A stretch of DNA of 62,148 nucleotides, the filler included. It is 7 parts of 7 records of this genome, joined end to end, with 100 filler letters (N's around TTAATTAATTAA, not from the genome) between each part and the next. Parts side by side here need not be neighbours in the genome. Positions count along the whole stretch, not along the records: positions 1 to 15,962 come from SRR31147125_9126; 6 more parts are not named here. One strand, given 5' to 3'. Numbering within the stretch: the first letter of the stretch is position 1; every line of letters begins with the position of its first letter. The translations under genes were made by a program, and so were the position numbers. Of this stretch, positions 1,044 to 33,730 are shown one piece after another. A model generated the notes under the pieces. That model was not told the DNA's origin and searched no databases. It saw nothing but the letters and a program-made list of their open reading frames with translations.

Positions 1044-1484
1044 TTACATGGTCTCAACGAACGAGACAATGGATACTGCCAATCCCGGATCCCCATTCTG
1101 GAAGAATATCCAGAGGTGATAAACACCTGTCTTCTGGCATTTAAAATTAAAACCTCCAAAGTCTTTTCCTGTAGCTTCTATAAAAGAACTTCCTTGTAAT
1201 CTGTTTGTATCAAAAAGTTGAATAACACCTTTGCCAGGCTTTGTATCAGAATTACAAATGGTGAAGTTGTATACATTATTTTTCTGAAGTATCATTGAAT
1301 ATTTTGCCTGGGGAGGTCGGCCATCAGCTTCTGCAGGACCTAAGTCAACAACAAAGTCTTTTAAATAAGTTGCCTCGCCACCAGCACTTTTGGCACATTC
1401 TCTAATAAGAGCCTCTTCCATCTGAGCCTGGACTTTGATAAAAGAGAATGATGCCAATAAAACTATGAATATAATATTTTTCAT
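1044..1484 (-). CDS. secreted hypothetical protein (signal peptide, 3 Cys)
   Basis: N-terminal MKNIIF...VQAQ signal peptide; 1 bp from upstream lipoprotein gene. Confidence 0.8.
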   Translation of the reverse strand: MKNIIFIVLLASFSFIKVQAQMEEALIRECAKSAGGEATYLKDFVVDLGPAEADGRPPQAKYSMILQKNNVYNFTICNSDTKPGKGVIQLFDTNRLQGSSFIEATGKDFGGFNFKCQKTGVYHLWIFFQNGDPGLAVSIVSFVETM

Positions 1485-1485
1485 A

Positions 1486-2385
1486 TTATAAATTTATTAA
1501 CTTATTTCTAATTTCTTCTGTTTTTAGTGTAATTTCAGTTAAAGTTTCTTCGCTAATATGTACAATACTTTTTTCATTTTGTATTATAACTAGCTGTCCG
1601 TTTTCTTCGATTGCTTCTGGTTCACCTTTTTCAATGGTTATCTCAACATCGTCGAATAAAACTTTAACTTTTTGCAACTCTGTAATTAAGTCGGCAATAT
1701 ATTTATCTCTTTTGTAATTGTTAAGGATAATAAGCAATTGGGCAAGTATTTGTTTTTGCTCACCAATTCGTTCTGCTAATTGATCTGATTGACTCTCAAC
1801 AGCAACCTGTGTACCTAGATAAAGACCCTCTACCCATACACCAGCTATCATTAAAGAACTTAAATTTCCTCTTTTCCCTTCACGTAGATATTGATCCATT
1901 TGATTGAAACTATGCACAGAAATGTACATTAAAGAATCAATATTCTGACTGTTGGTGGCAAGTCTCTTTAGTGTTGAGAAATCAAAAAACTGACCTACAT
2001 TAATTCCGTCAGCCAGTGTTTTTATTGCAGATAGATAATCAACAACAGCAGCTGTTTTTTCATACATGTTTAAGTACCCCATATCAGCACCGAAAACGCC
2101 CAGGCAGAAAGCCCTTTTTGAGCCTGTAACATACTCATCAACGTATTCTGTAGTGGCAAGATATTTTTTCGAAAATGGTACTCCTAAGGCTTTAATTAAA
2201 GCGGCCATTTCAATAGGAGATGAAACATTCTCAACGATACTTTCCATTGTTTCATCAGATACCTCCAATTCTGCTTCAGAATCCGGAGCTGGTACATCTA
2301 ACCCACCTTTTAGGCTCTTATCATTAGACTTACAACTAGCCAGGATGAGTATTACTGAAAATATTAATAAGATTCTATTAACCAT
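1486..2385 (-). CDS. helical lipoprotein, unknown function
   Basis: Lipobox LILASC; 299 aa. Confidence 0.85.
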   Translation of the reverse strand: MVNRILLIFSVILILASCKSNDKSLKGGLDVPAPDSEAELEVSDETMESIVENVSSPIEMAALIKALGVPFSKKYLATTEYVDEYVTGSKRAFCLGVFGADMGYLNMYEKTAAVVDYLSAIKTLADGINVGQFFDFSTLKRLATNSQNIDSLMYISVHSFNQMDQYLREGKRGNLSSLMIAGVWVEGLYLGTQVAVESQSDQLAERIGEQKQILAQLLIILNNYKRDKYIADLITELQKVKVLFDDVEITIEKGEPEAIEENGQLVIIQNEKSIVHISEETLTEITLKTEEIRNKLINL

Positions 2386-2412
2386 TTACAAACTTGTTTA
2401 AAGTTGTTATAA

Positions 2413-2420
2413 CAAATTTA
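2413..2420 (-). promoter_or_regulatory. Bacteroidota-type -7 promoter element TAAATTTG
   Basis: Matches TAnnTTTG, ~28 nt upstream of lipoprotein start. Confidence 0.45.
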
Positions 2421-2464
2421 GTATTTATTTATAAATATAGTAATAACTAAGTATTTTCTTACAA

Positions 2465-5400
2465 TTACTGTTTAACCTTTATTTTCTCGAATAAACCGAG
2501 AAGCTTTTTAAGGTGTTCGTAATATAAAGTTATATAGAGTAAAATTGTAAGTAGCCAAATAAACGAAACGTTAAACCAATAGGTTTCAAAATACATTCCC
2601 AAAAAGTGTTTTCTGGGTGCAAGGAAATGCGATCTAAAGTCCAGGTTCCCTTTTACAACAGGATCTTGGTATACGGGATGAAATTGTTGGATATATTCGT
2701 TATTGTATTCAATTATTTTATTTTTTTCATATACTTTAAGTGCAATGTCGGCAACGCTTTCATTATGATAAGCATCTCTATATGCTCTATATCTTTCTGC
2801 GTCATTGTCTAACCAATAAGTTATAATGTCTTCTTTTTTCTGGTTAGCCAGTTCAAACATCTCTAGATACTCAGCTTCCAATTGCTGTAGGAAATCGAAT
2901 ATCAAATAATAGTATTCTGTGTTATACGTTTTAGGTTCCAGATTATCGATTCCTTCAATCGCAAGATTAGGATAATCTTTTTGTTCTTTTAAAATTTCGT
3001 TTTTCAACAGCTTTATGTTATCTGCTGTTTCTTCTATTTTACCTTTTTCGTTGAACTCGTCTTGGGCTTGTTCTAACTTATTGTTTAATCCGGGTATTAG
3101 GTGGACTGTTTTAAAATCTGCAATACTTTCAAATTTTTCTAAGTCGAATAATGTGAGGTTGTTCGCAGGATCGACCACACTTCCCTTATACCGGTTATCT
3201 TTAAATTGATGGACTAACAATGCCTCATAGGACCATTTTGTCACCATAAATTCTGCGATAATAGGAACTTTGCCAACGCTGCTAACTCTTTTGTTCAGCT
3301 TATCAAAACTAAACATGGCACCACTTAGAATCATCATAGGAATCATTAAAAGTGGAATTAAAATGTAGATAGTAACAGCCGAATTAAATGTTGCTGATAT
3401 GTTTAGTCCAAGCATGTTGGCAAATACAGCGGTGGAAAATAAAACAAACCAATAGTGAAAAAGCATTCCTTTAATACCAAGTATTGAGTTGGCAATTATT
3501 AGGAATGTAAAAGCTTGTATGGCAGATATTCCAACGAGGATAATAATTTTTGAGGCCAGGTAACTCGAACGGCTTAAGTTTAGAAAAGCTTCCCGTTTCA
3601 GTATTTTTCTATCCCTGAATATTTCTTCGGCACTTACCGTAAGTCCTAGGAAAAGTGCTACAATCAAGGCCATAAAAATGTAAATATGGATATTTTCATT
3701 TTCCCTGAATATGTAAATATTCGATTTTGGATCAGCTATATAGCGGATAATAAAAGAAAGAATAAAACCTAGTACAGGTGCTTCCAGCAAGTTTAAAGCA
3801 ATATATTGTTTGTTGCTAATTTTGGAAAATAAATCGCGTAGCGTATAAATTTTTAACTGGTTAAGCCAATTTGGAATATTTAGTCCCTTTGGTGGCTTCT
3901 CTTCAATTATCTTAGCTGGTTCAAGTTTAATTTCGCTTTGATAGTATTCTTCCCAATTAGTTGGAGCTACTTTTCGGCTATCGGTATAATTACCAAATTC
4001 ATCTACTATTTTAGCTTCAATAATATTGAATATCAATTCAGGGTTTACATTACCACAGGTGGGGCATTCACCAACATCACTGTTAATTTGTTGATCGATG
4101 CGCTTAAAGTACATAACAGCCTCAACTGGGTTGCCGTAATAAATCAGGTAGCCACCAGTATCGAGGATAACCATTTTGTCAAACATTTTATATATCTCTG
4201 ACGATGGTTGGTGAATCACAACAAATATGAGTTTACCTTTTAGTGCAAGCTCTCTAAGAAGGTCCATTACATTCTCAGAATCTCGTGATGAAAGTCCGGA
4301 TGTAGGTTCATCAACGAATAGAATTGAAGGCTCTCTAATTAATTCCAGTGCAATATTTAACCTTTTTCGTTGTCCACCGGAAATTGTTTTGTTGAGTGGT
4401 GAACCAACTTTTAAATCTTTTCTATCGAGCAGTCCGAGGTTAGAAAGTGTTTTTTCAACGAGCTGAACTATTTCTTCTTCAGATTTATCTTTAAAACAAA
4501 GTTTTGCGTTGTAATATAAGTTTTCAAAAACAGTTAATTCTTCAATTAGAAGGTCGTCTTGCGGTATTAAACCAATTACACCCTCCAGTTTATCTTTTTC
4601 ATTATGAAGATCTATACCGTTAATTAATACTGCGCCTTGAGAAGGTTTATTAATACCAGAAAGAACGTTGAGCAGAGTTGTTTTACCGGCACCACTTGCA
4701 CCCATAATTCCAATTAACTTTCCGTGATTCTCGGAGAAAGTTATATTGCGAAGCCCAATGTTTCCATTTGCAAACTTGTATTCAATATCTTTTATCTCAT
4801 AAGATAACTTGCTCGATGTGATGTCTTCCATAAAATGGGCAAGTACATCACTATAATAAATGGGTTTACCCTTAGGTAACTTAACAGTACTTCCATTTGC
4901 AAATAAGTAGATGCGTTTATTATTGATGGTTAACCCATTTAAGAACAAGTTTTCTTTACCGGTATACTTTAAAAAATAAAGATCGGCACTTACAATATGA
5001 AGAATAAAAATATTCTCGTCGAGCTTTTCTGTTTTTATATGCTTGAAACCATTTGCACCAAAACCTTCTTTATCGTTGATGATCATTAAATTATCATCAT
5101 GCATATCAATGGAGTCGTTTTTAACAACGAATGCTTCAATGCTTTGAAATTCTTCTGGTGAAATTGTAAATACCTCAGCAACGGTATTTATAATGGCCAT
5201 TCGTTGTTCAGAAAATTTGCGGTCTGCATTTATTAACTCGAAAAGGCGGACCAACACAACAACTTTCTGGCTTTGGGTAAGACTTTTGTTAATTTTTTTA
5301 CAAAGTCCTAAAATTCGAACAGAATCTTTTACTGATGTGAGTTTTCGTTTACGCTCCTTTTTTTCGTCATCTTTTAATAATCCTGCGTTTTTTTCGAATA

Positions 5401-5548
5401 GTGCAAAATATTCCTTAACCCCAGCTTCATTTAACTGCTGGGTAAGAAAGTTTTTAACATATTCGATCTCACTTTCTTCGACACCCTCATCTTGCTTTGC
5501 AATGATGGCAAAAAGTTGCATTAAGGCCCGTAAGATTTCTTCACTCAT
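2465..5548 (-). CDS. ABCG-type transporter (NBD-TMD) with N-terminal TerB-like helical domain and possible degenerate FHA-like segment
   Basis: Walker A GASGAGKT, signature ISGGQRKR, Walker B LFVDEPTSG, H-loop IHQPS, ABC2 membrane helices; ~245 aa N-terminal extension. Confidence 0.85.
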   Translation of the reverse strand: MSEEILRALMQLFAIIAKQDEGVEESEIEYVKNFLTQQLNEAGVKEYFALFEKNAGLLKDDEKKERKRKLTSVKDSVRILGLCKKINKSLTQSQKVVVLVRLFELINADRKFSEQRMAIINTVAEVFTISPEEFQSIEAFVVKNDSIDMHDDNLMIINDKEGFGANGFKHIKTEKLDENIFILHIVSADLYFLKYTGKENLFLNGLTINNKRIYLFANGSTVKLPKGKPIYYSDVLAHFMEDITSSKLSYEIKDIEYKFANGNIGLRNITFSENHGKLIGIMGASGAGKTTLLNVLSGINKPSQGAVLINGIDLHNEKDKLEGVIGLIPQDDLLIEELTVFENLYYNAKLCFKDKSEEEIVQLVEKTLSNLGLLDRKDLKVGSPLNKTISGGQRKRLNIALELIREPSILFVDEPTSGLSSRDSENVMDLLRELALKGKLIFVVIHQPSSEIYKMFDKMVILDTGGYLIYYGNPVEAVMYFKRIDQQINSDVGECPTCGNVNPELIFNIIEAKIVDEFGNYTDSRKVAPTNWEEYYQSEIKLEPAKIIEEKPPKGLNIPNWLNQLKIYTLRDLFSKISNKQYIALNLLEAPVLGFILSFIIRYIADPKSNIYIFRENENIHIYIFMALIVALFLGLTVSAEEIFRDRKILKREAFLNLSRSSYLASKIIILVGISAIQAFTFLIIANSILGIKGMLFHYWFVLFSTAVFANMLGLNISATFNSAVTIYILIPLLMIPMMILSGAMFSFDKLNKRVSSVGKVPIIAEFMVTKWSYEALLVHQFKDNRYKGSVVDPANNLTLFDLEKFESIADFKTVHLIPGLNNKLEQAQDEFNEKGKIEETADNIKLLKNEILKEQKDYPNLAIEGIDNLEPKTYNTEYYYLIFDFLQQLEAEYLEMFELANQKKEDIITYWLDNDAERYRAYRDAYHNESVADIALKVYEKNKIIEYNNEYIQQFHPVYQDPVVKGNLDFRSHFLAPRKHFLGMYFETYWFNVSFIWLLTILLYITLYYEHLKKLLGLFEKIKVKQ

Positions 5549-5598
5549 AAAATCAGATTATAAATGCTTGATTCTGTCTATAAATACTTTACAAATAA

Positions 5599-5973
5599 CT
5601 AGTAAGAAACTTGCTCAAATGGCACATCAACGATGTCTGCATATTCTTCGCCTGCTTCTTCCATATCTTCATCATCTTCAGGGAAATGCCATTTAATTAA
5701 TACCTCGTTGCCTTTTTCATGCAAGGTTTCAAGCTTCATTAAAATATCGAGTAATAATTTAGAAGATGCGGTATTAAAGTATACCAGCTTGAAATTAAAT
5801 ATGGTACTACTAAGAGGACTCTCCATATACTCATCAAGCCAATTCAAGACTGGGTCGTAGAATGAAGCAACATCTTCTGGTAATGATCTCCCTGATATTT
5901 CAAATATCTCGTTACTCGCGTCGAGAATAACTTTCGGCGTATCTTCTGTTCCTGCAATCTTAATTGTTTCCAT
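5599..5973 (-). CDS. siaC: SiaC-family (DUF1987) phosphoacceptor protein
   Basis: TPKV, GRSLPED, YFNTASSK (Thr at residue 68), W..DDEDMEEAGEEY. Confidence 0.9.
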   Translation of the reverse strand: METIKIAGTEDTPKVILDASNEIFEISGRSLPEDVASFYDPVLNWLDEYMESPLSSTIFNFKLVYFNTASSKLLLDILMKLETLHEKGNEVLIKWHFPEDDEDMEEAGEEYADIVDVPFEQVSY

Positions 5974-5983
5974 AATATATCTT

Positions 5984-6562
5984 TTAGCTTCTTTCTATTG
6001 TTGATGTTAATAAGAAGAACGATGTTTCGTCATTAATTGGTAAGAAATGGTATTCAAGTTCATGATCAGTTTTACGTTTGATATCAATAAAACCTAAACC
6101 AGCTCCACCTTTATCCGATAACCTTCCTTCTTTCATTTGTTTTTTGTAGAGTTCTTTCAATTCATCCTTGTCCAATTTATTGATTTTCTCAAGGATGGTT
6201 GATAACTCTTCAATTTTTTCGTTCTCTACGGCATTACCGGTTGTAACACTATACTCGTTTTCTCCTTTACTTACCAGGAAAATTCCTCTTCCTGAAAACA
6301 AGTAATCTTCAGATCCGAAATCTTCGGCATGTTTGCTAATGTTTTGTAAACATTCTACCATTACATGGAAGACTCTTCGTTGTACACTGCCGGATTCCTC
6401 ATCTTTAGCCATATTTGTTTCAGTTAAAGATGTGAAAGCCTTGGTAATTTGGTGTGTGATCTCACCTTCATAAACTAAGGTGATTTCGTGTGCCTTCATC
6501 GATTTGTAGAATTCATATACAAATTCAAGAAAGCCTTTTACGTCTTTTTTGTCGTTATCCAT
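5984..6562 (-). CDS. siaB: SiaB-family GHKL Ser/Thr kinase (DUF6272)
   Basis: VECLQNISKH, TTGN, GGAGLGFIDIKRK motifs; adjacent to siaC. Confidence 0.88.
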   Translation of the reverse strand: MDNDKKDVKGFLEFVYEFYKSMKAHEITLVYEGEITHQITKAFTSLTETNMAKDEESGSVQRRVFHVMVECLQNISKHAEDFGSEDYLFSGRGIFLVSKGENEYSVTTGNAVENEKIEELSTILEKINKLDKDELKELYKKQMKEGRLSDKGGAGLGFIDIKRKTDHELEYHFLPINDETSFFLLTSTIERS

Positions 6563-6586
6563 AGCTACCTAAATTTAGACTGTTTA

Positions 6587-9193
6587 TTAAAATTCAATTC
6601 CAATTAACAAAACGTCATCTATTTGTTTTATATCTTGTTTCCAGTTTAGGAAGTCTTGTTCAAAATATTTATTGAAGCCTTCCATGGAAATATCTTTATT
6701 TTCTACAATTGCTTCTCTAATTCTCCTGGCTGTATATTTTTTCTTTTCAGGACCACCAACCTGGTCAGGTAATCCGTCGGAGAAGAAGAAAAATTTATCG
6801 TTTTTCTGATAATTGATTACATGATTTGTGAAGTCCTTCTCTGGTTTTTTCCTGTGAGGGATTCCTCCAATAGCTTTTCTGTCTCCTTTAAATTCAGACA
6901 ATTCATCTCCTCTTAACATATAAAGTGGACGGTGAGCTCCAGAATATTGTAGTTCTTTCTTTTCGAAATTAATTTTACAAAGTGCTATATCCATCCCATC
7001 CCTGGCATTGGCACCTTCGCGGTCTTGTTTAAGGGTAGATCTTACTCCATAATGAAGTTGATCGCAAACCTGTGCCGCTGTAAGATCTACGTCTTTGTCT
7101 ACAACATTATTTAATATAAAATACCCAATAAATGATAACAGTGCTCCTGGCACACCATGCCCGGTACAATCTACTGCTGCGATATAAATGTCGTCTCCTT
7201 TTTTGAAAAACCAAGGGAAATCACCACTTACTACATCTCTTGGGACATAAAAAATAAATGATTTTGGCAGGTATTCCCGAATTATATTGTTATCTGGAAG
7301 AATCGAACCTTGAATACGTTCTGCATAGTTGATACTATCTTCAATTTTCTTGTTTTTCTCTTGTATCTCGCGCTCAATTCTTTTGGCTTCTGTAATATCG
7401 TGTCCAACAAAGAGAATTGTTTCCAGCTCGTTTTCGTTAAATTCCGGGATAGCACCAATACTTATTATCCTTTCTATTTCATGAACTCCTTGAATGGGTG
7501 GTATTGTAAGTTCCTTGTTTAGCTTTTTAGGTTCTTCTTTAATTTCTTTTGTTGTTTCACGAAAATAGTCTTGTAAAACTTCAACAATATCAATTTGTTT
7601 TAAGGTTTTATTAATTACATCTTTAGGTTTAAGGCCAACATAATCTTCAATAACAGGATTTGCATAAAAGAATTGACCTGCTGTACTCAAACGTACAATC
7701 ATGTCTAGGGAATTTTCAGAAAGGGCTTGCATTTTACTTTTTAGTCTTTCTTCTTTTTCTGCACGTTTCCTCTCGGTTATATCCTGAGAGTTAATTATAA
7801 TTCCGTTTATTGCAGGATCATTAAGTAAATTTCGGCCTATTGCTTCGATAAATATCTTCTCTCCATTCTTTTTCATGTATGTATATTGAATGGAGTATGA
7901 TTTGTCTGGGTTTTCTTTTAGGTAAGTAAACATTTCAGTCATTAATGCTTCGCCCCTTCTTGTAAGACGATCCATATCCTTACCACGCATCATTTCTTCA
8001 GGTGTAAACCCGAGGATTTTCGTTACTGATGGACTTACATAAGACATTTTTAAATTGATGTCATAGATAGATATAATCTCCGATGCATTTTCTAGTAGAG
8101 AGTAAAGTCTTTTCTGTGCATTTTCAACTTTTTGGATTTGAGCTTCGAGTTTTTCGTTCGATTTTTCAAGCTCTTCCTGGGTTGCACGCATTTCCTCAGC
8201 ATTTTGCCTAAGCTGTTCTTCGTTTTCACGAAGCTCTTCGGTCATTTTCTGAGATTCTTGTAAAAGCAGTTCTGTTCTTTGATTTACTTTGAGGTTGAAG
8301 ATTGTTCGTGATAAAATTTCGCCCAATTCTCGCAAGAATTGTATGGTAAGTTCTGAGAACGAATCTTCTAACGTTGCAAACTCAATAACACCTTGTAAAC
8401 TTTCATCTGAAATTAATGGAACTATGAGAATGCTTTTTGGTTTTTTATCTCCAAGAATTCCCGATGTAATGGTAACATAATCATCCGGGATCTCTGTTCG
8501 ATAAATAATGTCCATTTCATATGCACATTGACCAATTAAGCCATGGCCAATTTTGAATTCCTGATTAACATGTTTTTTGCGGTTATATGCATAGGTTGAC
8601 ATGTTTACAAGAACTTGTTTGTCCTCATCGTAAATATATAACGCACCCTGAATAACCTTGATATAGCGGATTAAATTTACGAGTACATCATATGATAATT
8701 CATCCATCTTGTTATGCATACGAAGGATATTCGATACAATATCTTTACCTTCTGCAATCCAGCTTTGGTCGGCTTCTTTTTTGCTGTTTTCAAGAAGGTT
8801 GTCGCGCATTAAAAGCAATGAGTCACCAAGAATATCGGATTCGCCAGTTACTTCAAATTTACTTTCGTAGTTTCCTTGACCAATCTCTTTTGCAAAGTCA
8901 GCAATTTTATTAATTCTTTGTTCTCTATCAGAAAGTTCTTTTTTAAACTTAATGCTAATCTTGCTAATGCTGCCCTGGTTATAATAAATACCTATTGCAG
9001 CTAGTATAGGGAATAAATATGTAAACCATATTAATGGATTTTCTGAATGCATCCTTCCTATCTCACTAAAAGAAAAGGAGTACTTCTGATCGATTATCAA
9101 AATAATCCAAGAAAGTAGAGGGATAATTAATCCAATAACGAATCCTCTAACAATAGTATTTTGTAGTGAATGATTTACTTTATTACCATCCAT
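6587..9193 (-). CDS. membrane GAF-coiled coil-PAS-PAS-PP2C (SpoIIE) phosphatase, SiaA-like
   Basis: 2 TM, GAF (GLIGQCA), PAS folds, PP2C motifs VSGDF, DCTGHGVPG, DGMD, SDGLPDQ, QIDDVL. Confidence 0.92.
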   Translation of the reverse strand: MDGNKVNHSLQNTIVRGFVIGLIIPLLSWIILIIDQKYSFSFSEIGRMHSENPLIWFTYLFPILAAIGIYYNQGSISKISIKFKKELSDREQRINKIADFAKEIGQGNYESKFEVTGESDILGDSLLLMRDNLLENSKKEADQSWIAEGKDIVSNILRMHNKMDELSYDVLVNLIRYIKVIQGALYIYDEDKQVLVNMSTYAYNRKKHVNQEFKIGHGLIGQCAYEMDIIYRTEIPDDYVTITSGILGDKKPKSILIVPLISDESLQGVIEFATLEDSFSELTIQFLRELGEILSRTIFNLKVNQRTELLLQESQKMTEELRENEEQLRQNAEEMRATQEELEKSNEKLEAQIQKVENAQKRLYSLLENASEIISIYDINLKMSYVSPSVTKILGFTPEEMMRGKDMDRLTRRGEALMTEMFTYLKENPDKSYSIQYTYMKKNGEKIFIEAIGRNLLNDPAINGIIINSQDITERKRAEKEERLKSKMQALSENSLDMIVRLSTAGQFFYANPVIEDYVGLKPKDVINKTLKQIDIVEVLQDYFRETTKEIKEEPKKLNKELTIPPIQGVHEIERIISIGAIPEFNENELETILFVGHDITEAKRIEREIQEKNKKIEDSINYAERIQGSILPDNNIIREYLPKSFIFYVPRDVVSGDFPWFFKKGDDIYIAAVDCTGHGVPGALLSFIGYFILNNVVDKDVDLTAAQVCDQLHYGVRSTLKQDREGANARDGMDIALCKINFEKKELQYSGAHRPLYMLRGDELSEFKGDRKAIGGIPHRKKPEKDFTNHVINYQKNDKFFFFSDGLPDQVGGPEKKKYTARRIREAIVENKDISMEGFNKYFEQDFLNWKQDIKQIDDVLLIGIEF

Positions 9194-9196
9194 ATT

Positions 9197-9976
9197 CTAT
9201 TCCTCTGATACTTTATTTGTTTTATCAACTAATTTATTGGCAATAACTTGCAATAAGTTTTCAAAATTCTTGTCCAATGTTTTAAATGAAGCTATTTCGA
9301 CTATTGCAACTGTTTTCTCATTTTGAATAGCTGGTACAATTAATAAGTGATTCGGACTTCCTGTTCCAAGACCTGAAATAACTTTCACATAACCTTCAGG
9401 AATATCCTCAATATTCACTAATTGTTTATTTTTAGCAACTTGTCCAGGAAGACTTTCTCCTTCTTTAAAATCTTGCGGTGGTTCATCTGAGAAGTAAGCA
9501 TATTTTCCTGAAACTTTGAAAATATCATCTGTATTATCCCTGAAGAAAATCACTCCTTGCGAGATTTCGTGCTTTTTAGAAATATTGGTTAATAATTTCT
9601 CTGTATAACCCTGTAAATCATCAACTCCGTCTTTAGGGAAGAATTCTTCGGCTTCTTTGTTTAATTCTTCATCCGAAAGTAATTTGAGTTCAGATTCAGT
9701 ATTAATTGTTTCCTTTTTATCGCTTGTGGAAACAGAAGTTTCATTCTTAATCAATTTCTCAATAACGACTTCCTTTTTAGGTCTGAAAAGATTTAGGATG
9801 AACAAAGAAAATCCTGCTAAGAATAAAATGATAAACTTGACTGTCAACGATTTTTCAGGCTCAGTCTCTAAATTAGCAAGAATATCTTGTGTATTAGATA
9901 AAAGGATAAATCCTGATAATAAAAAGACAATTACTAAAAAAATGGAAAGCGCCCTATGTAAAAAATTAAATTTCAT
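9197..9976 (-). CDS. 2-TM protein with C-terminal GAF domain
   Basis: FKEGESLPGQVA, IPEGY, SGLG, LLIVP, VEIAS motifs paralogous to the neighbouring GAFs. Confidence 0.85.
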   Translation of the reverse strand: MKFNFLHRALSIFLVIVFLLSGFILLSNTQDILANLETEPEKSLTVKFIILFLAGFSLFILNLFRPKKEVVIEKLIKNETSVSTSDKKETINTESELKLLSDEELNKEAEEFFPKDGVDDLQGYTEKLLTNISKKHEISQGVIFFRDNTDDIFKVSGKYAYFSDEPPQDFKEGESLPGQVAKNKQLVNIEDIPEGYVKVISGLGTGSPNHLLIVPAIQNEKTVAIVEIASFKTLDKNFENLLQVIANKLVDKTNKVSEE

Positions 9977-9983
9977 ACAGTTG

Positions 9984-10544
9984 CTATAAATTTATCTTTT
10001 GTAAAAAACGAATTATCTGGTCTGTTTTATAAATATGATCAACCTTAGTCACTTTAAGTGATGAGTCTGTCATGGTTCTTACTTCGCATTCTTCAGGATC
10101 TTGAACGATGGTAGTGCCACCTAAGTCATGAACTTTTTTAAGACCCAAAGCACCATCTTTATTTGCTCCTGATAAGATTATTCCTGCCAGACTTTTTCTA
10201 TAAGCATATGCAGCAGTAATAAAAGATAAATCAATAGCTGGCCTTGAATGATTAACAGGTTCTTCTGTTGAAAGAGCAACCCTGTTTGCCAATTCAAGAA
10301 ACATATGATAGTTTGCCGGAGCAAGATATGCTTTGCCTGGTTTTAATTGTTCTTTATCTATTGGTTCAATAACCGGAATGCTAGACTTCAATGATAAAGC
10401 CTCCACAAACCCTGAACGGACATGCTTTAATCTATGCAAACAAAGAAGCACAGGAATTGGAAAGTTTTTTGGTAATGCGTTGAGTATTTTTGTTACCACC
10501 TGAAAACTTCCTGCCGAACCACCTATTATAACAGCTTTATACAT
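9984..10544 (-). CDS. cheB: stand-alone CheB methylesterase (no receiver domain)
   Basis: GGSAGS (Ser), LHR (His), APANYH, SRPAID, GANKDGA (Asp), TIVQDP. Confidence 0.92.
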   Translation of the reverse strand: MYKAVIIGGSAGSFQVVTKILNALPKNFPIPVLLCLHRLKHVRSGFVEALSLKSSIPVIEPIDKEQLKPGKAYLAPANYHMFLELANRVALSTEEPVNHSRPAIDLSFITAAYAYRKSLAGIILSGANKDGALGLKKVHDLGGTTIVQDPEECEVRTMTDSSLKVTKVDHIYKTDQIIRFLQKINL

Positions 10545-10548
10545 CTAC

Positions 10549-11376
10549 TTAAGTTCGTTTTTTAAATATGTTTTCGTTTTTATTTACCAAAGTAAATTCA
10601 GTTTCTTTGGTAAAACCCTCAATATTTTCTTTAGCACCAGCAATAAGATGTCCGCCATATGAAAGACTCTGATGCAACTTGGTTAATACTTTTGTTTGTA
10701 ATGAAGGATTATAATTGATTAAATGATTTCTAAAAATAATAAGCTTAATATCTTTTAATGGGGGATCGTATGTTATGCTATGTTTTACAAAATCAATACG
10801 TTCAATCAAACTTTTATCCCTGTAGGCGATATTGTCATCCAGTGTAATATAATCAGCAAAATTTCTTAGACCGTTATATCGTTTGTAATTTTCGTTACTG
10901 ATATCTATTTTTTTCAATCTAAGTACACCTGTTTTAATTGTTTCTATCTGTTCTTCAACGACTGCAGATGCAATAATTGTTACCTTATCAAGCCATCCAT
11001 TTTCTAATAGTACTATGCAAAGTGTATATAATTCATCACCAGAAACACAATCGGGCAGCCAAATCTTATATCGTAGATTGGGCTTAATTTGTTTTGGGAA
11101 GAATTCGTCCCTGAGCCACCTCCAAAGAGAAGGATCTCTGAACATTTCAGTAGACTCAATGGCTATATCCTGCAAAAATTTATTAATGAATTTTTTATCA
11201 TCTGATAACCGAAGAATTAAATTATCTGCATTTTTCAGATTATTAACCAATATTGTTTTTTCTAATCTTCTTTTAAATGAAGTTAATGCATGATTCGAAA
11301 AATCAAGGTTATGGTATTCTTTCAATACCCGAACGATATTTCTTGTTTCTACTATGCCAATCTCAATAACATCCAT
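10549..11376 (-). CDS. cheR: CheR-family methyltransferase with degenerate motifs
   Basis: TEMFRDP retained; IWLPDCVSGDELY and IIFRNHLINY diverge from canonical IWSAGCSTGEE and CRNVLIYF. Confidence 0.8.
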   Translation of the reverse strand: MDVIEIGIVETRNIVRVLKEYHNLDFSNHALTSFKRRLEKTILVNNLKNADNLILRLSDDKKFINKFLQDIAIESTEMFRDPSLWRWLRDEFFPKQIKPNLRYKIWLPDCVSGDELYTLCIVLLENGWLDKVTIIASAVVEEQIETIKTGVLRLKKIDISNENYKRYNGLRNFADYITLDDNIAYRDKSLIERIDFVKHSITYDPPLKDIKLIIFRNHLINYNPSLQTKVLTKLHQSLSYGGHLIAGAKENIEGFTKETEFTLVNKNENIFKKRT

Positions 11377-11380
11377 TTAA

Positions 11381-14119
11381 TTACTTGCTATTATTTTTCT
11401 CAATAAGCTCTTTAAGTCGCTCAATTTCTTTATTCGCGTCTACCAGTAATTGGAATCTTTGCTTTTGTTCTGTAATATCTTGTCCCAAGTAGTAGATTTT
11501 GTATATTTTTTTCGTATCGTCTAATACCGGAGAGAAAGTTGAAACAATCCATCTTTCCTCGCCATCAGGGCGTATACGTTTAATATTCGCTTTTTGTGAC
11601 TCATTATTGGCTGTTTTTAACCATAAATCATTAAAAATTGTTAATTCTTCTGAATTAAAGAATTTGGTAATTTTGTTATTTAATAAGTCTTCCAGGGGCA
11701 ATCCCATTAAATCAGCAAAGTTTTCATTTGCTCTAAGTATCTCACCATCAGTAGATAATTCGCATTTAATTAATGCATGGTTGATAGCGTCATCTAAAAT
11801 GTCCATTTCGTTAGCTTTTCGCTTCATGTCCCGGACATTTTTCTCGTATTCTTGTTCTTTAATTTTAGATTCCGACATATCAATGGCAATATTCAGAACC
11901 TTATAAGCAACACCATCAGTGTTTAGAATAGGGTTATAAGTTTGGTTTAACCAAAGTTTCTTGCCATTCAGAAGTTTAATTACTTCCAGGTTATTGACTG
12001 CTTCGCCCGTTTTTAATGTATTCCAAAATTCAACATAAGAATTTTCTGTTCTTACTTTCGAAGTGAAATCACTATGGTGCATGCCAACAATATCGTTTTT
12101 GGGAGCTTCAAGTAACTCAAGGAATTTTTGATTGATATTGGTTATATGACCCGTCATATCATATTCAACAACAAGGGATGTGCTATTGATCGCATCGAAA
12201 ATGCTTGAAATTTCGGACTCACGTCTTGCAGCTTCTTCTTGCGTGGCTTGAAGTTCTTCCATGTTTTGCCTCATCTCTTCTTCCTGCTCAGCCATCTCCT
12301 GCGCTTGTCTTTGCGATTGTTCGAGCAATTCAGACGTGCGTTCGTTAATTTTTACAGTGGTTAATGTTGAAGCAATACTTTCTGCCAGCTTTTCAATAAA
12401 TTCTATTTCATGTTGTTCAAATTCTGTAAGTGCGGCGAGTTCGATAACACCCAGAATTTCATTTTCTAAGCTAAGTGGGACGATCAAAATACAACTTGGT
12501 TTTGCGTCACCAAGCCCACTGGTTATTTCCAGGTAATCTTCGGGAATTTCTGTTAGATAAGTTGATTTCTTTTCAACAGCGCAAGTCCCGATTAGACCTT
12601 CGCCCATTTCTATGGTTTTTGTAATAAATTTCTTTCTATTATAAGCTACAGCTGCTTTTAATTCAAGGAATATTTTGCTTTTGTCCTCATCGTTTATTAA
12701 GAAAAGGCCACCTTGTGTTGCATCAATATATTTAACAAGGTTCATTATTAATACAGATGAGAGTTCCTCTAAATTGTCGTTATTTTGTCTAAGAATATCG
12801 GCAAAGGTGGCAAGCCCCTCGTTAGTCCATCTTCTTTTTTCATTTTCAATCTTATGTTTTTCTTCTTCTTCCCTTGTTTTAATAAGGTTTTCTTTTAATA
12901 ACACAAGTGAATTGCCAAGATCATCATATTCACTTATAGGTTGAAAATCATTGTCAAGAGTGCCGGATGCCAAATTATTTGAGAAGTTAATTTTTTCTTT
13001 TTGTGTATCTGAGTAGATATTTAAATTAGTGGCAATTTCTTCGAATTCCCCGCCAGTTTTAATGCTAAGATTACCTATTGGCTTACCCACAGATAGATTT
13101 TTTATGGATGAATTAATTGTTAATAGGGGTTTGCTTAACAAAAAATACATTGCCAGAAAAATTCCAATTGAAACAAGGGTAAATAATATCCAAAAGATTA
13201 CCAGTACCTTTTGGTTTTTTGTTTTCGTTTTGTTGTAGTCAATAATTATTTCTTCAAGTATTGTATTAATTTTTCCATCAATACCCGATAATTCGTTAAT
13301 GATTGTATGTAAAGCTCCTGATTCGTTGCCAAGCCCAATAAGTATATCTTTTTCCAGTACTTGGTTAGCGGCAGAAGTATAGTCATCAAGCAGGGCATTA
13401 ATATCTGCTGAAGAGTTATCGCTCATTGCTGGCTCACTAAATGCTTCTCCAAAATCAAGGCTGGCCGTGTCTTGCAATGACTGTTCAAACTCTAATGTTT
13501 GTTTTGTTTGCTCGGCAAGATCTGTAATATTATTTATTATACTCGTTTCTCCCGATCTCAAGTATTGTTCTTTTAACTGAATAATCTGTTGTAAATTTGA
13601 TACAGCTTCCTGGTTTGATATAAAATATGTTTGGTCGTTTAATTGCTGACCTGCAGATTCCCAATTGGCAAGAAGACCCTCGTTAAATGTTCCCCGTTCT
13701 TCAACCAATTGTAAAAGTTTATTATAATCATCTTTTACTGCACTTAATGTTTTGTTTATTTCGATTAATACAGCCTCCTGGTTTGGATGAAAGAAAAAAT
13801 ACTGATTGTCGATAATTAGGTTGTATTGGTTGTTAAGAATAGAAAGGTTATCGGAGAATGTTGCAATGGCTTCGGATTTGTTCTTGCCCGACGTAACTAT
13901 TTCTCCACTTTTTACTTCTTTTTCCAGTGTATATACAGAAGATGTTAATGATGGTAGTAAGCCTACATATGTATTTAAGTTATTTTGTAACGATTGATAA
14001 TCGACTAATTTTTTGTTTGAATTAAGAGATAGAAGACCAAAAATTATCCAACTAACACCAATTATGATAATTAGAAATAATATTTTAGTATTAAATGACA
14101 GTTGACTGTTTTTCATCAT
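11381..14119 (-). CDS. TM-periplasmic sensor-TM-HAMP-GAF-coiled coil-PAS-PAS receptor lacking an output domain
   Basis: Two TM helices flanking ~270 aa; GAF (GEGLIGTCA); EEMRQNMEELQATQEE coil; two PAS domains; ends in short coil. Confidence 0.88.
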   Translation of the reverse strand: MMKNSQLSFNTKILFLIIIIGVSWIIFGLLSLNSNKKLVDYQSLQNNLNTYVGLLPSLTSSVYTLEKEVKSGEIVTSGKNKSEAIATFSDNLSILNNQYNLIIDNQYFFFHPNQEAVLIEINKTLSAVKDDYNKLLQLVEERGTFNEGLLANWESAGQQLNDQTYFISNQEAVSNLQQIIQLKEQYLRSGETSIINNITDLAEQTKQTLEFEQSLQDTASLDFGEAFSEPAMSDNSSADINALLDDYTSAANQVLEKDILIGLGNESGALHTIINELSGIDGKINTILEEIIIDYNKTKTKNQKVLVIFWILFTLVSIGIFLAMYFLLSKPLLTINSSIKNLSVGKPIGNLSIKTGGEFEEIATNLNIYSDTQKEKINFSNNLASGTLDNDFQPISEYDDLGNSLVLLKENLIKTREEEEKHKIENEKRRWTNEGLATFADILRQNNDNLEELSSVLIMNLVKYIDATQGGLFLINDEDKSKIFLELKAAVAYNRKKFITKTIEMGEGLIGTCAVEKKSTYLTEIPEDYLEITSGLGDAKPSCILIVPLSLENEILGVIELAALTEFEQHEIEFIEKLAESIASTLTTVKINERTSELLEQSQRQAQEMAEQEEEMRQNMEELQATQEEAARRESEISSIFDAINSTSLVVEYDMTGHITNINQKFLELLEAPKNDIVGMHHSDFTSKVRTENSYVEFWNTLKTGEAVNNLEVIKLLNGKKLWLNQTYNPILNTDGVAYKVLNIAIDMSESKIKEQEYEKNVRDMKRKANEMDILDDAINHALIKCELSTDGEILRANENFADLMGLPLEDLLNNKITKFFNSEELTIFNDLWLKTANNESQKANIKRIRPDGEERWIVSTFSPVLDDTKKIYKIYYLGQDITEQKQRFQLLVDANKEIERLKELIEKNNSK

Positions 14120-14151
14120 TTTGTGTCTATAATATTCAAGTATAGTTAAAG

Positions 14152-15003
14152 TTAATAATCGATATTAATTTTTAACATAGTATTGTCCTTTTTTTGAAAC
14201 CTGTTAGCGTATTCACCCAGAATTGTTTCGTGCATTCCTAAAATTAGAATTCCATTATCGTAAATGTTTTTATAGAACAGGTCAAATACTTGGTTCTGTA
14301 AATTATAATTGAAATAAATAATTACATTCCTGCAAAGGATAAGATCGAATTTAATATAGGCCGTGTTTTCTTCTCTTACTAAATCATGCTTTCTAAAAGA
14401 AGGTATATTCCTTAACCTTTCATCCATCCTTATGGTATCTGTTTCCTTATCAATTTGGAAATATTTATCATATGGGACTTCCTTATATTCTTCGTAGTTA
14501 TAAGGATTTTCTTTAATTACCTTATCAAAATTATCGAGGTAGCCAATATTGAATCGATATTTATATTCTCCTTTTTTAGCTATGTTTAACACATCACTAT
14601 TTAAATCGGTGGCTACAATTTTAGTTTTACCCAACAGATTAAGTTCACTTAGTAAAATCATCATCGAATATACTTCCTGGCCTGTTGAACATCCGGCATG
14701 CCATATATTAATCTGAGGCTGCGATGCCAGTGTTGGAAGTATTTTATACTTTAACACATGCCAAATAGGAGGATCCCTGAATAGCTCTGTTGTGTTTACA
14801 GTAATTTCTTTGATTATTTTTTCTAAGAAAACAGGTTCGTTTTTCAACCTACCGACCAATTGCGTGATATTAGTTTTATTATCGACTAAAACCTTAGCCA
14901 ACCTCCTTTTGAGAGATTTCTCCGAATATTCTGAAAAATCGTAATTCGAAGAGCTTTTTATAGCATACAGGAAAATCTGAAAATCTTGCTCCGTAATGGT
15001 CAT
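14152..15003 (-). CDS. cheR: CheR protein-glutamate methyltransferase
   Basis: TELFRDP, IWHAGCSTGQEVYS, ATDLN, DLILCRNVIIYF. Confidence 0.93.
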   Translation of the reverse strand: MTITEQDFQIFLYAIKSSSNYDFSEYSEKSLKRRLAKVLVDNKTNITQLVGRLKNEPVFLEKIIKEITVNTTELFRDPPIWHVLKYKILPTLASQPQINIWHAGCSTGQEVYSMMILLSELNLLGKTKIVATDLNSDVLNIAKKGEYKYRFNIGYLDNFDKVIKENPYNYEEYKEVPYDKYFQIDKETDTIRMDERLRNIPSFRKHDLVREENTAYIKFDLILCRNVIIYFNYNLQNQVFDLFYKNIYDNGILILGMHETILGEYANRFQKKDNTMLKINIDY

Positions 15004-15120: not shown

Positions 15121-15962
15121 ATGGAATTGACTGAAATAAATTACACAATTGGCATTTACGGAATTCAGGACATAAGGTTATCTGAATACCCCGAATTTAT
15201 TCATGATCATTCAATATCAGTGTTTTACAAAGGTGAATGTTTGGAGCATTTGCACCTCGAACGATTTACAAGGATAAAATACGATAACCGGATACAAAAT
15301 TACCTGTATGAAATTCTAAAAAAAGTGGGTCTTTCGGGTAAAAAAAATGTGGATGTTATCTTCTCAGATAACATAATCGGAAGGTCAATGATTTCATCAA
15401 AAGGAGATATCCGATTCGAATCTCCTATATCAAAATTGCTACAGGCTGATTGTGAAGAAGGATTATTAAGATGGTACGGGATAGAAAAAACGGGTTATAT
15501 TCTAAATCATGAATTAGCGCATATATATAGCACAATTCCATTTTATGGGAACTTCAATGAAAATAGCCTTCTTGTACATTTTGATGGTGGTGCCAGCAAA
15601 GGAAATTTTTCGGCTTGGTTATGGAAAGATGGAAAACTAAAGCTGATTGAATATGGTTGGGAACTTGAATATTTATCATCATTCTATAATTCGAATGCTT
15701 TAATGTTTTCCATAATTGGGGCAAAGCGGCAAGAGCAAAATAGTGTGCCAGGTAAATTAATGGGATTGGCCGGATTTGGCAAGTACGATCCAAAAATTGA
15801 AAAGTGGTTAAAACAAAATCAATATTTCAAAGATATCTGGGGGAATAAGTCAAAGTTTTTCAATGCAGTATATAACGATTGGGGCATAAATCTTAACTCT
15901 TTCGACACAAGAAATGAGTTTCTCCAAAATATAGTTGCAACAGTACAAGTAATATTTGAGCG
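15121..15962 (+). CDS. carbamoyltransferase (NodU/CmcH family) N-terminal part, 3' truncated by contig end
   Basis: HDHS, ERFTRIK, HELAH, FDGG, PGKLMGLAGFG. Confidence 0.8.
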
Positions 15963-16062
15963 NNNNNNNNNNNNNNNNNNNNNNNNNNNNNNNNNNNNNN
16001 NNNNNNTTAATTAATTAANNNNNNNNNNNNNNNNNNNNNNNNNNNNNNNNNNNNNNNNNNNN
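15963..16062. other. artificial contig spacer
   Basis: N-run with TTAATTAATTAA. Confidence 0.99.
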
Positions 16063-16339
16063 AAAAAGGGGGAGGTTTGCCGAAGATCCACCCCCACATC
16101 AAAGACTTTTCCCCGGGTCACCCGGACCAGCTTGCCCTGGGGCTGCTCTATCTGATAGTGCAGCCCCTCAGGGTCCCCATGCAGGAGCCGCTGGTATTTT
16201 CCTGGACAAAGGCCACATCCGCCACAGTCTCCCGGAACTCATTGTCCCGGAAGGTCTCCATAAAATATCCCCGGTCATCCCCGAACACCTTGGGAATGAG
16301 CACCCTCATATCGTCAATTGCCGCAGGCACAAATTTCAT
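16063..16339 (-). CDS. rfbC: dTDP-4-dehydrorhamnose 3,5-epimerase, 3' partial, apparent frameshift near 16167
   Basis: VFGDDRGYFME, FVQEN; shifted frame continues LHYQIEQPQGKLVR. Confidence 0.9.
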
Positions 16340-17265
16340 CAGATATCCCCCCGCTCCAGCAATTGAAGAAGATACTGGCCGTAGCCGTTCTTTTCAAAGA
16401 GATGGGCCCGCGCCTCCACCTGGTCCGCCGTGATCCATCCCATCTGGTAGGCAGCCTCTTCCAGGCAGGCGATTTTCAAGCCCTGGCGATCCTCCACCAC
16501 CTTAATAAAGGTACCGGCATCCAAAAGGGACTCATGGGTTCCGGTATCCAACCAGGCCGTGCCCCGGTTTAAAAGCTCCACCTTGAGCCGCCCCTGTTTA
16601 AGGTAGGCATTGTTCACATCGGTAATTTCAAGCTCACCCCGGGCCGAGGGCCGGATCTCCCCGGCAATATCCACCACGGCATTGTCGTAGAAGTATAGCC
16701 CTGTGACCGCATAATTTGACGGAGGCTCCACAGGCTTTTCCACAATGGCCGAGACCTTCCCGTCCCGGTCAAAATCCACCACACCGTACCGCCCCGGATC
16801 CTTGACATAATAGCCGAATACAAAGGCCCCCTGTTCAACCTTGCTGATCTGCTGGAGCCGGCCTGACAGCCCCTCCCCGAAAAAGATATTGTCCCCGAGA
16901 ATCAAGGAGACCAAATCCTTTCCAATAAACTCTTTTCCAATGATAAAGGCCTGGGCCAATCCTTCAGGCTTTTCCTGGACCGCATAGGACAGGGAAATCC
17001 CCCATTGGGAACCGTCCTGGAGCAGGTGCTGAAATAAACTCTGGTCCTGGGGGGTGGTAATGATCAAAATATCCCTGATCCCGGCCAGCATCAGGGTGGA
17101 CAAGGGATAATAGATCATGGGCTTGTCATAGACCGGCATGAGCTGCTTGCTCACGGAACAGGTCAAAGGATACAGCCGGGTGCCGCTGCCCCCGGCCAGG
17201 ATGATGCCTTTTCTTGTCTGCTGCAATTTTTTGGTTCCTTGATTTGTGAGGGTTATAACTGCCAT
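16339..17265 (-). CDS. rfbA: glucose-1-phosphate thymidylyltransferase
   Basis: [43 protein letters not shown]. Confidence 0.97.
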
Positions 17266-17353
17266 TGGCTGTCCGGCCTTAGAAAAATTGCGTCATCATA
17301 GTATGCAGCCCCATTATTTCTGTCAAGTTCAGGCCGGGGCTTGAAGCAAGGCC

Positions 17354-17386
17354 TTGACATCTAATCCCATCATGCGCACAATGGGA
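17354..17386 (+). promoter_or_regulatory. sigma70-type promoter of TA operon with inverted repeat
   Basis: TTGACA-17 bp-CACAAT; TCCCAT/ATGGGA inverted repeat overlapping the -10. Confidence 0.55.
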
Positions 17387-17413
17387 ACAAAATACAAAAG
17401 AAAGGAGGCGATC

Positions 17414-17671
17414 ATGCCTAAAACCAGAATCAACGTAAGTCTTGATCAGGATCTGGCCGAGTTTGCCAGGATCTTTGCTGCGGAAAACAGAACAACGGTT
17501 GCCGATATGGTCACCCAATACCTGCTGACTCTCCAACGGCGCATTGAGGGGGAGTCTCTTGACACTATCTTTGCCCACCCGGCCTTTGATCAGGCCATGG
17601 AAGAGGTCCAGACCAAACTCTGCCAAGGATCGGCACAATGGCATTCATACGATGAGGTATTTGGGGAATAA
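17414..17671 (+). CDS. putative antitoxin (RHH / DUF6364-like)
   Basis: RBS AAGGAGG; KTRINVSLD beta-ribbon start; C-terminal WHSYDEVF; overlaps toxin start. Confidence 0.7.
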   Translation: MPKTRINVSLDQDLAEFARIFAAENRTTVADMVTQYLLTLQRRIEGESLDTIFAHPAFDQAMEEVQTKLCQGSAQWHSYDEVFGE

Positions 17672-17964: not shown

Positions 17965-17983
17965 ATAAATCATAGTCTATATC

Positions 17984-19086: not shown

Positions 19087-19099
19087 CCCATCCTATTGG

Positions 19100-20462: not shown

Positions 20463-20545
20463 ATGAACTATCCTAAAATCCTATTGTCACATCCAGTTGC
20501 CGAAAACACAGAAAGACACCTGCATTTCCGGCAACGATAAATAAT

Positions 20546-21511: not shown

Positions 21512-21557
21512 AACAAACGCTCCTTTTGGCATTCTTCTATACCGAAATAAATAATTA

Positions 21558-23560: not shown

Positions 23561-23645
23561 ATTCTGTGTTCTCCTGTGTCAAACAGTGTCCCCAATTGCC
23601 CCCATCAGCGTCCAATTTTGCCCCCCCTAAAATTAAAAAAAATAT

Positions 23646-33718: not shown

Positions 33719-33730
33719 AAGGAAAGTATC

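Follow-up and report, generated by a model that had tools for sequence, protein, structure and literature searches.

The 62,148-nt stretch of DNA analysed here (the window) consists of seven parts of seven records joined together, and adjoining parts need not be neighbours in the genome. Eleven minus-strand open reading frames (ORFs), g01 to g11, fill its positions 1044-15003 with intergenic gaps of 1-79 bp, and our analysis suggests that this operon encodes an undescribed kind of adaptive signalling pathway. In every relative that we examined, CheR and CheB genes are welded to those of a Ser/Thr phosphatase switch, and no CheA, chemoreceptor or second-messenger enzyme is encoded nearby. Methylation by CheR and CheB is the textbook memory device of chemotaxis, and to our knowledge it has been demonstrated experimentally only on receptors of the methyl-accepting chemotaxis protein (MCP) type that control CheA. 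A literature search, which most subscription journals lay beyond, found no description of this wiring.

Tentatively, we read the operon as a kinase-free and chemoreceptor-free adaptive pathway in which CheR and CheB tune the PP2C phosphatase arm of a SiaB/SiaC switch, with an exporter as the output; as a whole, this reading is possible rather than probable. We infer its steps from protein families, residues and conserved gene linkage. Signals would reach three membrane-anchored GAF proteins, namely the PP2C phosphatase g06, the small protein g05 and, in relatives that carry it, the receptor g02 with its variable periplasmic domain as the signal input. The intact CheR (g01) would methylate Glu residues that a constitutive CheB (g04) would demethylate or deamidate, most likely at heptad-spaced Glu-Glu pairs in the coiled coil between the GAF and PAS domains of g06 and g02. 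Methylation of this coiled coil would set the phosphatase's gain, with g03, the degenerate CheR, serving as a non-catalytic adaptor. The phosphatase and the SiaB kinase (g07) would then set the phosphorylation of SiaC (g08) at Thr68, as in Pseudomonas SiaABC. With no SiaD present, SiaC would act instead on the product of the next gene, the TerB-ABCG exporter g09, which would work with lipoprotein g10 and secreted protein g11, and the output would be export of an envelope or surface component rather than synthesis of cyclic di-GMP. If methylation does set the phosphatase, the logic of adaptation has been moved onto a different signalling chemistry, and a function would follow for the abundant orphan SiaB/SiaC pairs found in Bacteroidota, for a very large family of output-less GAF-PAS sensors and for an uncharacterised exporter with its two partners. 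With ten genes, a single substrate helix and a single phosphosite, the system is small enough to be tested directly in vitro.

A conserved operon of eleven genes

An initial annotation, made from the sequence alone, had described eleven co-directional and closely packed genes. All of these ORFs were found on the minus strand with the same coordinates, and the domain content proposed for g01-g11 was matched by Pfam and NCBIfam scans. A bidirectional hairpin lies 3' of g11 at 981-1015 (16-bp stem, with T-runs on both strands) and is predicted to be a strong terminator-like end of the operon. A scan for sigma-70 promoters, using a consensus that is unsuited to Bacteroidota, gave 52 sites compared to the 59.4 expected from shuffled sequences.

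A gene-neighbourhood survey had been set beforehand as a refutation test of the proposed arrangement. SiaC (g08) has 5508 homologues at E ≤ 1e-3, and among the best 120 clusters (82-91% identity) the few with a source name came from Bacteroidales or Bacteroidota. A scan of one genome per species gave at least 543 SiaC relatives, and all locus counts given below use the best 80 of these. Every one of the 80 loci is from Bacteroidota, and 71 are from Bacteroidales; we know of no described behavioural signalling for this group of gut, rumen and sediment bacteria. The eleven window proteins were mapped by blastp onto every ORF of the 80 loci, and the gene order was identical in all 80 as far as the contigs reach. 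The genes cheR1, cheR2, cheB, g05, siaB and that for the PP2C phosphatase were present in all 55 loci with at least 9.1 kb of sequence upstream of siaC, and the ABCG gene, g10 and g11 were present in all 63 loci with at least 5.3 kb downstream. Fifty loci were long enough on both sides to show the complete set, and the ten-gene core was complete in each of them. The sole optional gene is g02, which was found in 34 of these 50 full-length loci; its presence or absence changes once on the PP2C tree (one gain or loss), and cheR1 directly abuts cheR2 where it is lacking.

The flanks of the operon are not conserved. The most widespread flanking gene family was common to just 30 loci, and the 80 flank-family representatives drawn from the 80 loci were housekeeping or unrelated genes. 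The same order in 80 of 80 loci, set between flanks that vary, is an arrangement beyond chance, and the boundary between conserved core and variable surroundings delimits the unit as exactly g01-g11. The survey thus bore out the proposed gene order, and g01-g11 are almost certainly one functional unit. Median identity to the window proteins was 79% for both SiaC and SiaB, 77% for CheB, 66% for the ABCG protein and 64% for both the PP2C phosphatase and CheR1; the lower values were 52% for g10, 44% for g11 and CheR2, 39% for g02 and 36% for g05.

The initial annotation had also claimed that the locus lacks MCP, CheA, CheW, GGDEF and histidine kinase proteins. None of the 80 flank-family representatives, which lie within 10 kb of the operon, contained an MCP, CheA, CheW, GGDEF or HisKA domain, and a domain scan of the 37 other ORFs of the window detected no MCP, CheA, CheW or GGDEF protein. 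The claim therefore stands for MCP, CheA, CheW and GGDEF proteins in the cluster, the window and the flanks. The absence of histidine kinases holds for the cluster and fails for the window, where one such kinase is encoded about 42 kb away.

Some flanking genes are of interest in their own right. A carbamoyltransferase-like gene diverges from the operon immediately upstream (15121-16014, plus strand), with its 3' end running into a masked stretch, and members of its family lie upstream of the operon in 16 loci. The flanks of two other loci (L006, 30-929, and L072, 14439-17447) encode type IX secretion/gliding proteins of the PorP/SprF type and an SprB-repeat protein with a Por secretion tail. 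On the basis of these PorP/SprF and SprB-repeat genes, at least some carriers of the operon are likely to be gliding bacteria.

A probable phosphatase-kinase switch and the neighbouring exporter

In Pseudomonas aeruginosa, the SiaABCD system comprises the PP2C phosphatase SiaA, the kinase SiaB, the phosphoprotein SiaC and the diguanylate cyclase SiaD, as described in PMC7647112 and PMC8457831. The operon resembles this system in its order of phosphatase, kinase, SiaC and effector slot, in the membrane anchoring of its phosphatase and in a Thr68 at the same aligned position. The phosphatase gene g06 (6587-9193) encodes an 868-residue membrane-anchored protein with the layout GAF-coiled coil-PAS-PAS-PP2C (Pfam GAF, PAS and SpoIIE). 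Its match to NCBIfam SiaA (NF038263) is confined to the PP2C part (1e-48; 166 bits compared to a cut-off of 700), and this part keeps the PP2C motifs SGDF, DCTGHG, SDG and DD. The kinase gene g07 (5984-6562; 192 residues, Pfam DUF6272) scores 175 bits against the SiaB family model NF038262, for which the cut-off is 85, and 83.7 bits against the SiaB equivalog NF038264, below the cut-off of 225. It also matches the P. aeruginosa SiaB chain 6KKO_A (1e-12) and keeps N-box-like and Gly-rich ATP-lid (G-box) segments. We take the residues kept in the phosphatase and in SiaB to have their usual functional roles.

The siaB gene adjoins siaC in all 80 loci. SiaC itself is encoded by g08 (5599-5973; 124 residues) and matches PF09345 at 8.4e-42 (142 bits, cut-off 24.5), the NCBIfam SiaC equivalog at 87.8 bits, below the cut-off of 150, and P. 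aeruginosa SiaC (6KKO_C) at 1.9e-15. Its Thr68 (codon 5770-5772) lines up with Thr in the NT pair of the phosphopeptide, containing T68, that was mapped in P. aeruginosa SiaC and is invariant in 81 of 81 sequences, in agreement with the annotation, which had noted that this SiaC retains the phosphosite. From these family matches and residues, the PP2C, SiaB and SiaC proteins very probably form a partner switch that acts on Thr68.

The operon also departs from SiaABCD in several respects. There is no SiaD or other GGDEF protein in the cluster, the 62-kb window or the 80 flank representatives, and a gene for a TerB-ABCG exporter follows siaC. The phosphatase, with its GAF-coiled coil-PAS-PAS sensory part, is SiaA-like in the PP2C domain only, and the window phosphatase, SiaB-family kinase and SiaC all score below their equivalog cut-offs. 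In addition, the operon contains a CheR, a pseudo-CheR, a CheB and two further GAF proteins.

The exporter gene g09 (2465-5548) encodes a 1027-residue protein in which Pfam places TerB at residues 8-138, ABC_tran at 266-417 and ABC2_membrane at 564-753, with a beta-rich region at about 150-250. The nearest solved ATPase domains are those of CDR1, Pdr5 and ABCG1, which together with the ABC-2 membrane domain indicates an ABCG-type half-transporter. As in the ABCG/ABC-2 half-transporters of the White family (TIGR00955), the ATPase domain is N-terminal to the membrane domain in one chain; the match to that model (2.7e-79, 267 bits) is below its cut-off of 736. Unlike these half-transporters, g09 adds the N-terminal TerB domain, a 100-residue region and a 240-residue C-terminal extension that holds the last transmembrane segment. 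Column identity is 0.8 in the TerB region compared to 0.85-0.97 in the ATPase domain, and the C-terminal extension is less conserved. We also searched g09 for an FHA-like reader of phospho-Thr at about residues 150-250 and rejected this candidate: no Pfam family matched at E ≤ 5, and a profile of 75 sequences found no match in the PDB (best E 0.37).

In each of the 63 loci with enough downstream sequence, g09 adjoins siaC, and the median distance between the two is 39 bp. The gene stands where SiaABCD has siaD, and the eLife paper on SiaC and SiaD proposes that DUF1987 proteins modulate adjacent proteins. On these grounds the exporter may be the target of SiaC, a proposal to which we give an even chance. 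The last two genes of the operon encode possible partners of g09. The 299-residue product of g10 (1486-2385) carries the lipobox LASC and had no match in Pfam, NCBIfam or a PDB profile search. It has 3414 homologues; of the 120 listed, every one that carries a source name is called hypothetical. In the ESM Atlas, the window g10 and two of its homologues were absent, and a third homologue led to unnamed Bacteroidota clusters with no named family and no structure. By sequence, g10 is a predicted lipoprotein of an uncharacterised Bacteroidota family. The g11 gene (1044-1484) encodes a small protein of 146 residues with a signal peptide and conserved Cys residues, which is predicted to be secreted; it too had no match in Pfam, NCBIfam or a PDB profile search.

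A candidate methyl-accepting coiled coil

The first gene of the operon, g01 (cheR1; 14152-15003), encodes an intact CheR methyltransferase of 283 residues (Pfam CheR_N and CheR, 1.9e-37) that matches Bacillus subtilis CheR (5FTW) at 2.3e-27. The enzyme retains AGCS(T/S)G, A(T/S)D and CRNVIIYF as motifs, and Asp133 and CRNVIIYF are each present in 62 of 62 orthologues. We take Asp133 and motif I to be functional residues for binding S-adenosylmethionine (SAM), and g01 has the class I SAM-binding motifs (a Gly-rich motif I and an acidic residue after strand 2), whereas g03 does not. The latter gene (cheR2; 10549-11376) encodes a 275-residue paralogue that is 30% identical to g01 (Pfam CheR, 1e-20). 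Its motif I is degenerate, and the SAM-binding Asp position holds Asp in none of 63 sequences. The second cheR had been annotated as degenerate, and the alignment bears this out; CheR2 is probably a conserved pseudo-enzyme or adaptor. The CheB gene g04 (9984-10544) encodes 186 residues, of which the methylesterase/deamidase domain already spans 5-179 (Pfam CheB_methylest, 1.3e-46), and there is no receiver (REC) domain. This fits the absence of CheA and implies that CheB would be constitutive. The columns for GGSAGS (Ser10), His37 and Asp130 are kept in 65-67 of 67 sequences, and these three residues are presumably the catalytic triad.

Three operon proteins have GAF domains of the same subfamily. 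The 912-residue receptor g02 (11381-14119; Pfam GAF and two PAS) is predicted to have a transmembrane segment (13-31), a periplasmic domain of about 270 residues and a second transmembrane segment (305-323), followed by a HAMP-like segment, GAF, coiled coil, PAS and PAS; the membrane segments were assigned by hydropathy. No output domain was found in g02 by Pfam or NCBIfam. Over the HAMP-like-GAF-coiled coil-PAS-PAS region, g02 and g06 are paralogous (30% identity, 2e-59). The small membrane protein g05 (9197-9976) has two transmembrane segments (9-27 and 46-64), a cytoplasmic GAF domain (Pfam GAF_2) that is 32% identical to the GAF of g06, and no coiled coil. By hydropathy, both g05 and g06 have only short membrane anchors. 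The annotation of a HAMP domain in g02 was upheld through homologues and not by direct search: Pfam finds no HAMP in window g02 or g06, but a relative to which Pfam does assign HAMP aligns (9e-10) with the g02 segment that follows the membrane, and HAMP or HAMP_2 was found in four of eight g02 orthologues scanned, one of them above the cut-off. No HisKA or HATPase_c domain was detected in g02, g06 or any of the eight orthologues.

The best-conserved element of g02 and g06 is by far the coiled coil, and both proteins carry a motif in it just after GAF and before PAS. In g02 this candidate methyl-accepting helix is QEEEMRQNMEELQATQEE (residues 612-629; 12233-12286, minus strand), in which all 40 aligned sequences agree at 16 of 18 columns, compared to about 39% identity for the whole protein. 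In g06 it is ELRENEEQLRQNAEEMRATQEEL (residues 320-342; 8168-8236, minus strand), which is near-invariant in 70 orthologues. It holds three heptad-spaced pairs of the Glu-Glu/Glu-Gln type (326/327, 333/334 and 340/341), and each pair is followed by one of a series of hydrophobic residues with a period of seven. CheR substrates typically show Glu-Glu pairs at heptad spacing, and the MCP methylation-site pattern is Glu-Glu-x-x-Ala-Thr, to which one pair of the motif conforms. Position 327 of g06 was Glu in 41 orthologues and Gln in 29, with no other residue found, and it has switched between the two at least eight times on a tree built without the motif columns, in loci with and without g02. Such switching would be expected at a site of Gln deamidation by CheB. 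When the motif was written as a regular expression, its only matches were g02 and g06 in a six-frame search of the window, and orthologues of these two in a search of every ORF of the 80 loci (1.5 Mb). In the 21 of 61 loci from which g02 is missing, g06 is the sole motif-bearing protein.

Based on these residues, the Glu-Glu pairs of the g06/g02 coiled coil are likely candidates for a methyl-accepting site. We judge it probable that CheR and CheB act on g06 and g02; that they do so at the coiled-coil motif is a narrower proposal, which may well be correct but which we put forward with caution. We also looked in g02 and g06 for a pentapeptide of the x-W-x-x-F pattern, which tethers CheR at the C-terminus of receptors, and neither C-terminus ends in it.

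The motif is not confined to this operon. We searched 1.84 billion representatives with a 53-position motif profile and obtained 3657 proteins at E ≤ 1e-3, of which 1422 remained at E ≤ 1e-10, the best matches carrying 2-9 copies. Pfam scans covered 149 of the best 150 motif proteins, which as metagenomic representatives may be incomplete. These 149 contain GAF and one to many PAS domains, often after Cache, PilJ or HAMP domains, which are input modules of the kind that MCPs use. Among the families listed for them, which in two of the three scans were the 25 commonest, SpoIIE/PP2C was the only catalytic domain (seven proteins), and HisKA, HATPase_c, GGDEF, CheR, CheB and MCP signalling domains did not occur. 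On this evidence g02 appears to belong to a large family of receptor-like, output-less proteins for which the only known fused output is PP2C. In many of these proteins (P0241-P0390), copies of the motif are spaced at about 165 residues, one before each PAS, or at 63-70 residues in pure coiled coil. The g06 coiled coil, used as query in a word-index search, gave orthologues alone, and a tblastn search of plasmids with the 53-residue motif gave no match.

Two plasmid-borne systems bear on the motif. Persicobacter psychrovividus plasmid pPP4 (L081, 4958-14804) is annotated with an MCP, CheW, CheY, CheA, a REC-SpoIIE protein, a CheB with REC and a CheR; among Bacteroidota plasmids, CheR1 has its best match in this CheR (34% identity). 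The PAS-rich MCP of this cluster carries the motif, and pPP4 links it again with CheR/CheB and a PP2C. The coiled coil immediately before PAS in the CheB-CheR-PAS-kinase fusion of Salinibacter ruber pSR84 contains triplets of the Glu-Glu-hydrophobic type in the same heptad register.

By extension, Bacteroidales, and perhaps many Bacteroidota, could possess a second, kinase-free kind of adaptive chemosensory pathway. Thousands of MCP-like GAF-[coiled coil-PAS]n receptors, with Cache, PilJ or HAMP inputs and mostly without enzymatic output, would be methylated by CheR and CheB and would assemble with a paralogous receptor-PP2C rather than with CheA, to signal through SiaB/SiaC and an ABC exporter to the cell surface (adhesion, gliding or matrix). 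We regard this broader proposal as speculative and on the unlikely side.

Alternative readings, related systems and neighbouring genes

Several observations weigh against the pathway as we have drawn it, and each bears on an alternative. At the output end, adjacency alone ties SiaC to g09: no sequence feature joins the two, and the stretch of g09 that separates TerB from the ATPase domain has no family or solved-structure match. In two of two plasmid loci inspected from other Bacteroidota, siaB-siaC lacks an adjacent exporter, cheR and cheB. One of these, on Persicobacter pPP7, has an SiaA-like PP2C gene followed by siaB and siaC, with no cheR or cheB beside it and with no motif in the phosphatase (one case); the other, on a Bernardetia plasmid, is siaB-siaC alone. 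These cases indicate that SiaBC without SiaD is common and already annotated in Bacteroidota, and the new part is the welding of SiaBC to CheR/CheB and the exporter. The signalling half could therefore be as described while SiaC acts on an unlinked target (a diguanylate cyclase, an anti-sigma factor or another enzyme), with TerB-ABCG, g10 and g11 forming an input that senses transport or envelope state, or merely being co-transcribed. The N-terminal TerB domain looks regulatory and could be a sensor in its own right. This alternative is rather unlikely: the ABCG gene, g10 and g11 follow siaC without exception in the 63 informative loci and at short distance, the TerB region matches the ATPase domain in conservation, and g09 occupies the effector slot of siaD, in line with the adjacency-based targeting proposed in the SiaC literature.

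At the input end, the motif could be a structural helix, with CheR and CheB acting in the operon on other Glu or Gln residues of g02, g06 or g05, or on another operon protein. The breadth of the motif family, in which the motif is often repeated before each PAS, is compatible with such a role. The MCP of pPP4, which has its own MCP signalling domain, carries the motif before its first PAS (30 bits), outside its methylation region. A motif that occurs in a true MCP with ordinary methylation helices may be a general GAF/PAS signalling helix. Moreover, the motif profile matches the coiled coil of the Salinibacter fusion, a real MAC1-type protein (MAC, methyl-accepting coiled-coil), only weakly (4.9 bits, with high bias), and exchange of Glu and Gln is an ordinary conservative substitution. 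We nevertheless consider this alternative unlikely, because heptad-spaced Glu-Glu pairs are typical of CheR substrates, position 327 is restricted to Glu or Gln, and the motif outstrips the rest of g02 so markedly in conservation. It is more improbable still that CheR and CheB serve chemoreceptors encoded elsewhere and sit beside PP2C-SiaB-SiaC through co-regulation only: the absence of MCP, CheA and CheW covers the window and locus flanks rather than whole genomes, and a Bacteroidota member, Persicobacter, does have a canonical Che cluster with a REC-PP2C, but here CheB has no REC, no CheA, CheW, CheY or MCP was found in the window or among the 80 flank representatives, cheR1-cheR2-cheB are joined to the PP2C gene in 55 of 55 loci, and a dedicated pseudo-CheR is conserved in the operon.

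The pPP4 cluster also offers a comparison as a chemosensory pathway with REC-PP2C output. Both systems are from Bacteroidota, and both have CheR and CheB beside a SpoIIE/PP2C protein and a motif-bearing protein. Unlike the operon, pPP4 has a true MCP, CheA, CheW, CheY and a REC-CheB, its PP2C is driven by a receiver domain, and it has no adjacent SiaB, SiaC or exporter. The window system has no phosphorelay parts, and its sensor is fused directly to PP2C. It likewise differs from the canonical Che pathway in having no MCP signalling domain, CheA or CheW in the cluster, the window or the flanks of the 80 loci. The operon may represent a reduced relative of those Che pathways whose output is a REC-PP2C.

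Methyl-accepting coiled-coil (MAC) systems, reportedly defined by Wuichet and Zhulin in 2010, offer another comparison. In one preprint (bioRxiv 10.1101/2022.05.07.491037), MAC proteins are described as combining the roles of receptor and kinase, and the systems are reported as never characterised; they are also described in PMC6943060. The operon resembles MAC systems in pairing CheR and CheB with a non-MCP receptor (cheR1, cheR2 and cheB adjoin g02, g05 and g06) and in its acidic pairs at heptad spacing directly before PAS, a register shared with the Salinibacter fusion. Unlike MAC systems, it lacks a histidine kinase domain, and its receptors are fused either to PP2C or to no output at all. 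The initial annotation had proposed a hybrid circuit of this kind with the Sia switch. That proposal gains from the discrete conserved unit and the plausible substrate helix for CheR and CheB, and parts company with the published description of MAC proteins over the kinase domain.

The rest of the window holds several features apart from the cluster. A kinase gene at 58597-61746 (plus strand) encodes a 7TM-PAS-HisKA-HATPase protein that ends in a GNAT/FeeM-type N-acyl amino acid synthase domain, a type of output unusual among kinases, and a REC-HD-GYP response regulator is encoded beside it at 56892-57920 (minus strand); this pair lies about 42 kb from the cluster and is not part of it. At 26597-31639 (minus strand), a 1680-residue protein combines a Ser/Thr kinase, an AAA_16 (STAND-like) ATPase, GAF and PAS, without the coiled-coil motif. 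Three MacB/FtsX-type permease genes stand in a row at 32165-37499 (plus strand), the last of which is split into two overlapping ORFs (36238-36942 and 36858-37499) and may reflect a frameshift or an artefact near a masked stretch. The region 16077-24000 has a G+C content of 42-53% compared to 28-35% on either side. Its minus strand encodes an RmlA-like nucleotidyltransferase, a VanZ-like protein, an initiating sugar transferase, an epimerase and glycosyltransferases, with a pyruvyl transferase just beyond, and the region resembles a horizontally acquired island for capsule or extracellular polysaccharide. At 47530-56000, a tyrosine integrase ORF abuts tRNA-Leu(TAA) (47544-47631), with its 3' end overlapping the tRNA gene, and is followed by genes for a DUF6602 protein, a DnaB-like helicase, an HTH protein and an SNase-domain protein; this region is probably an integrated mobile element.

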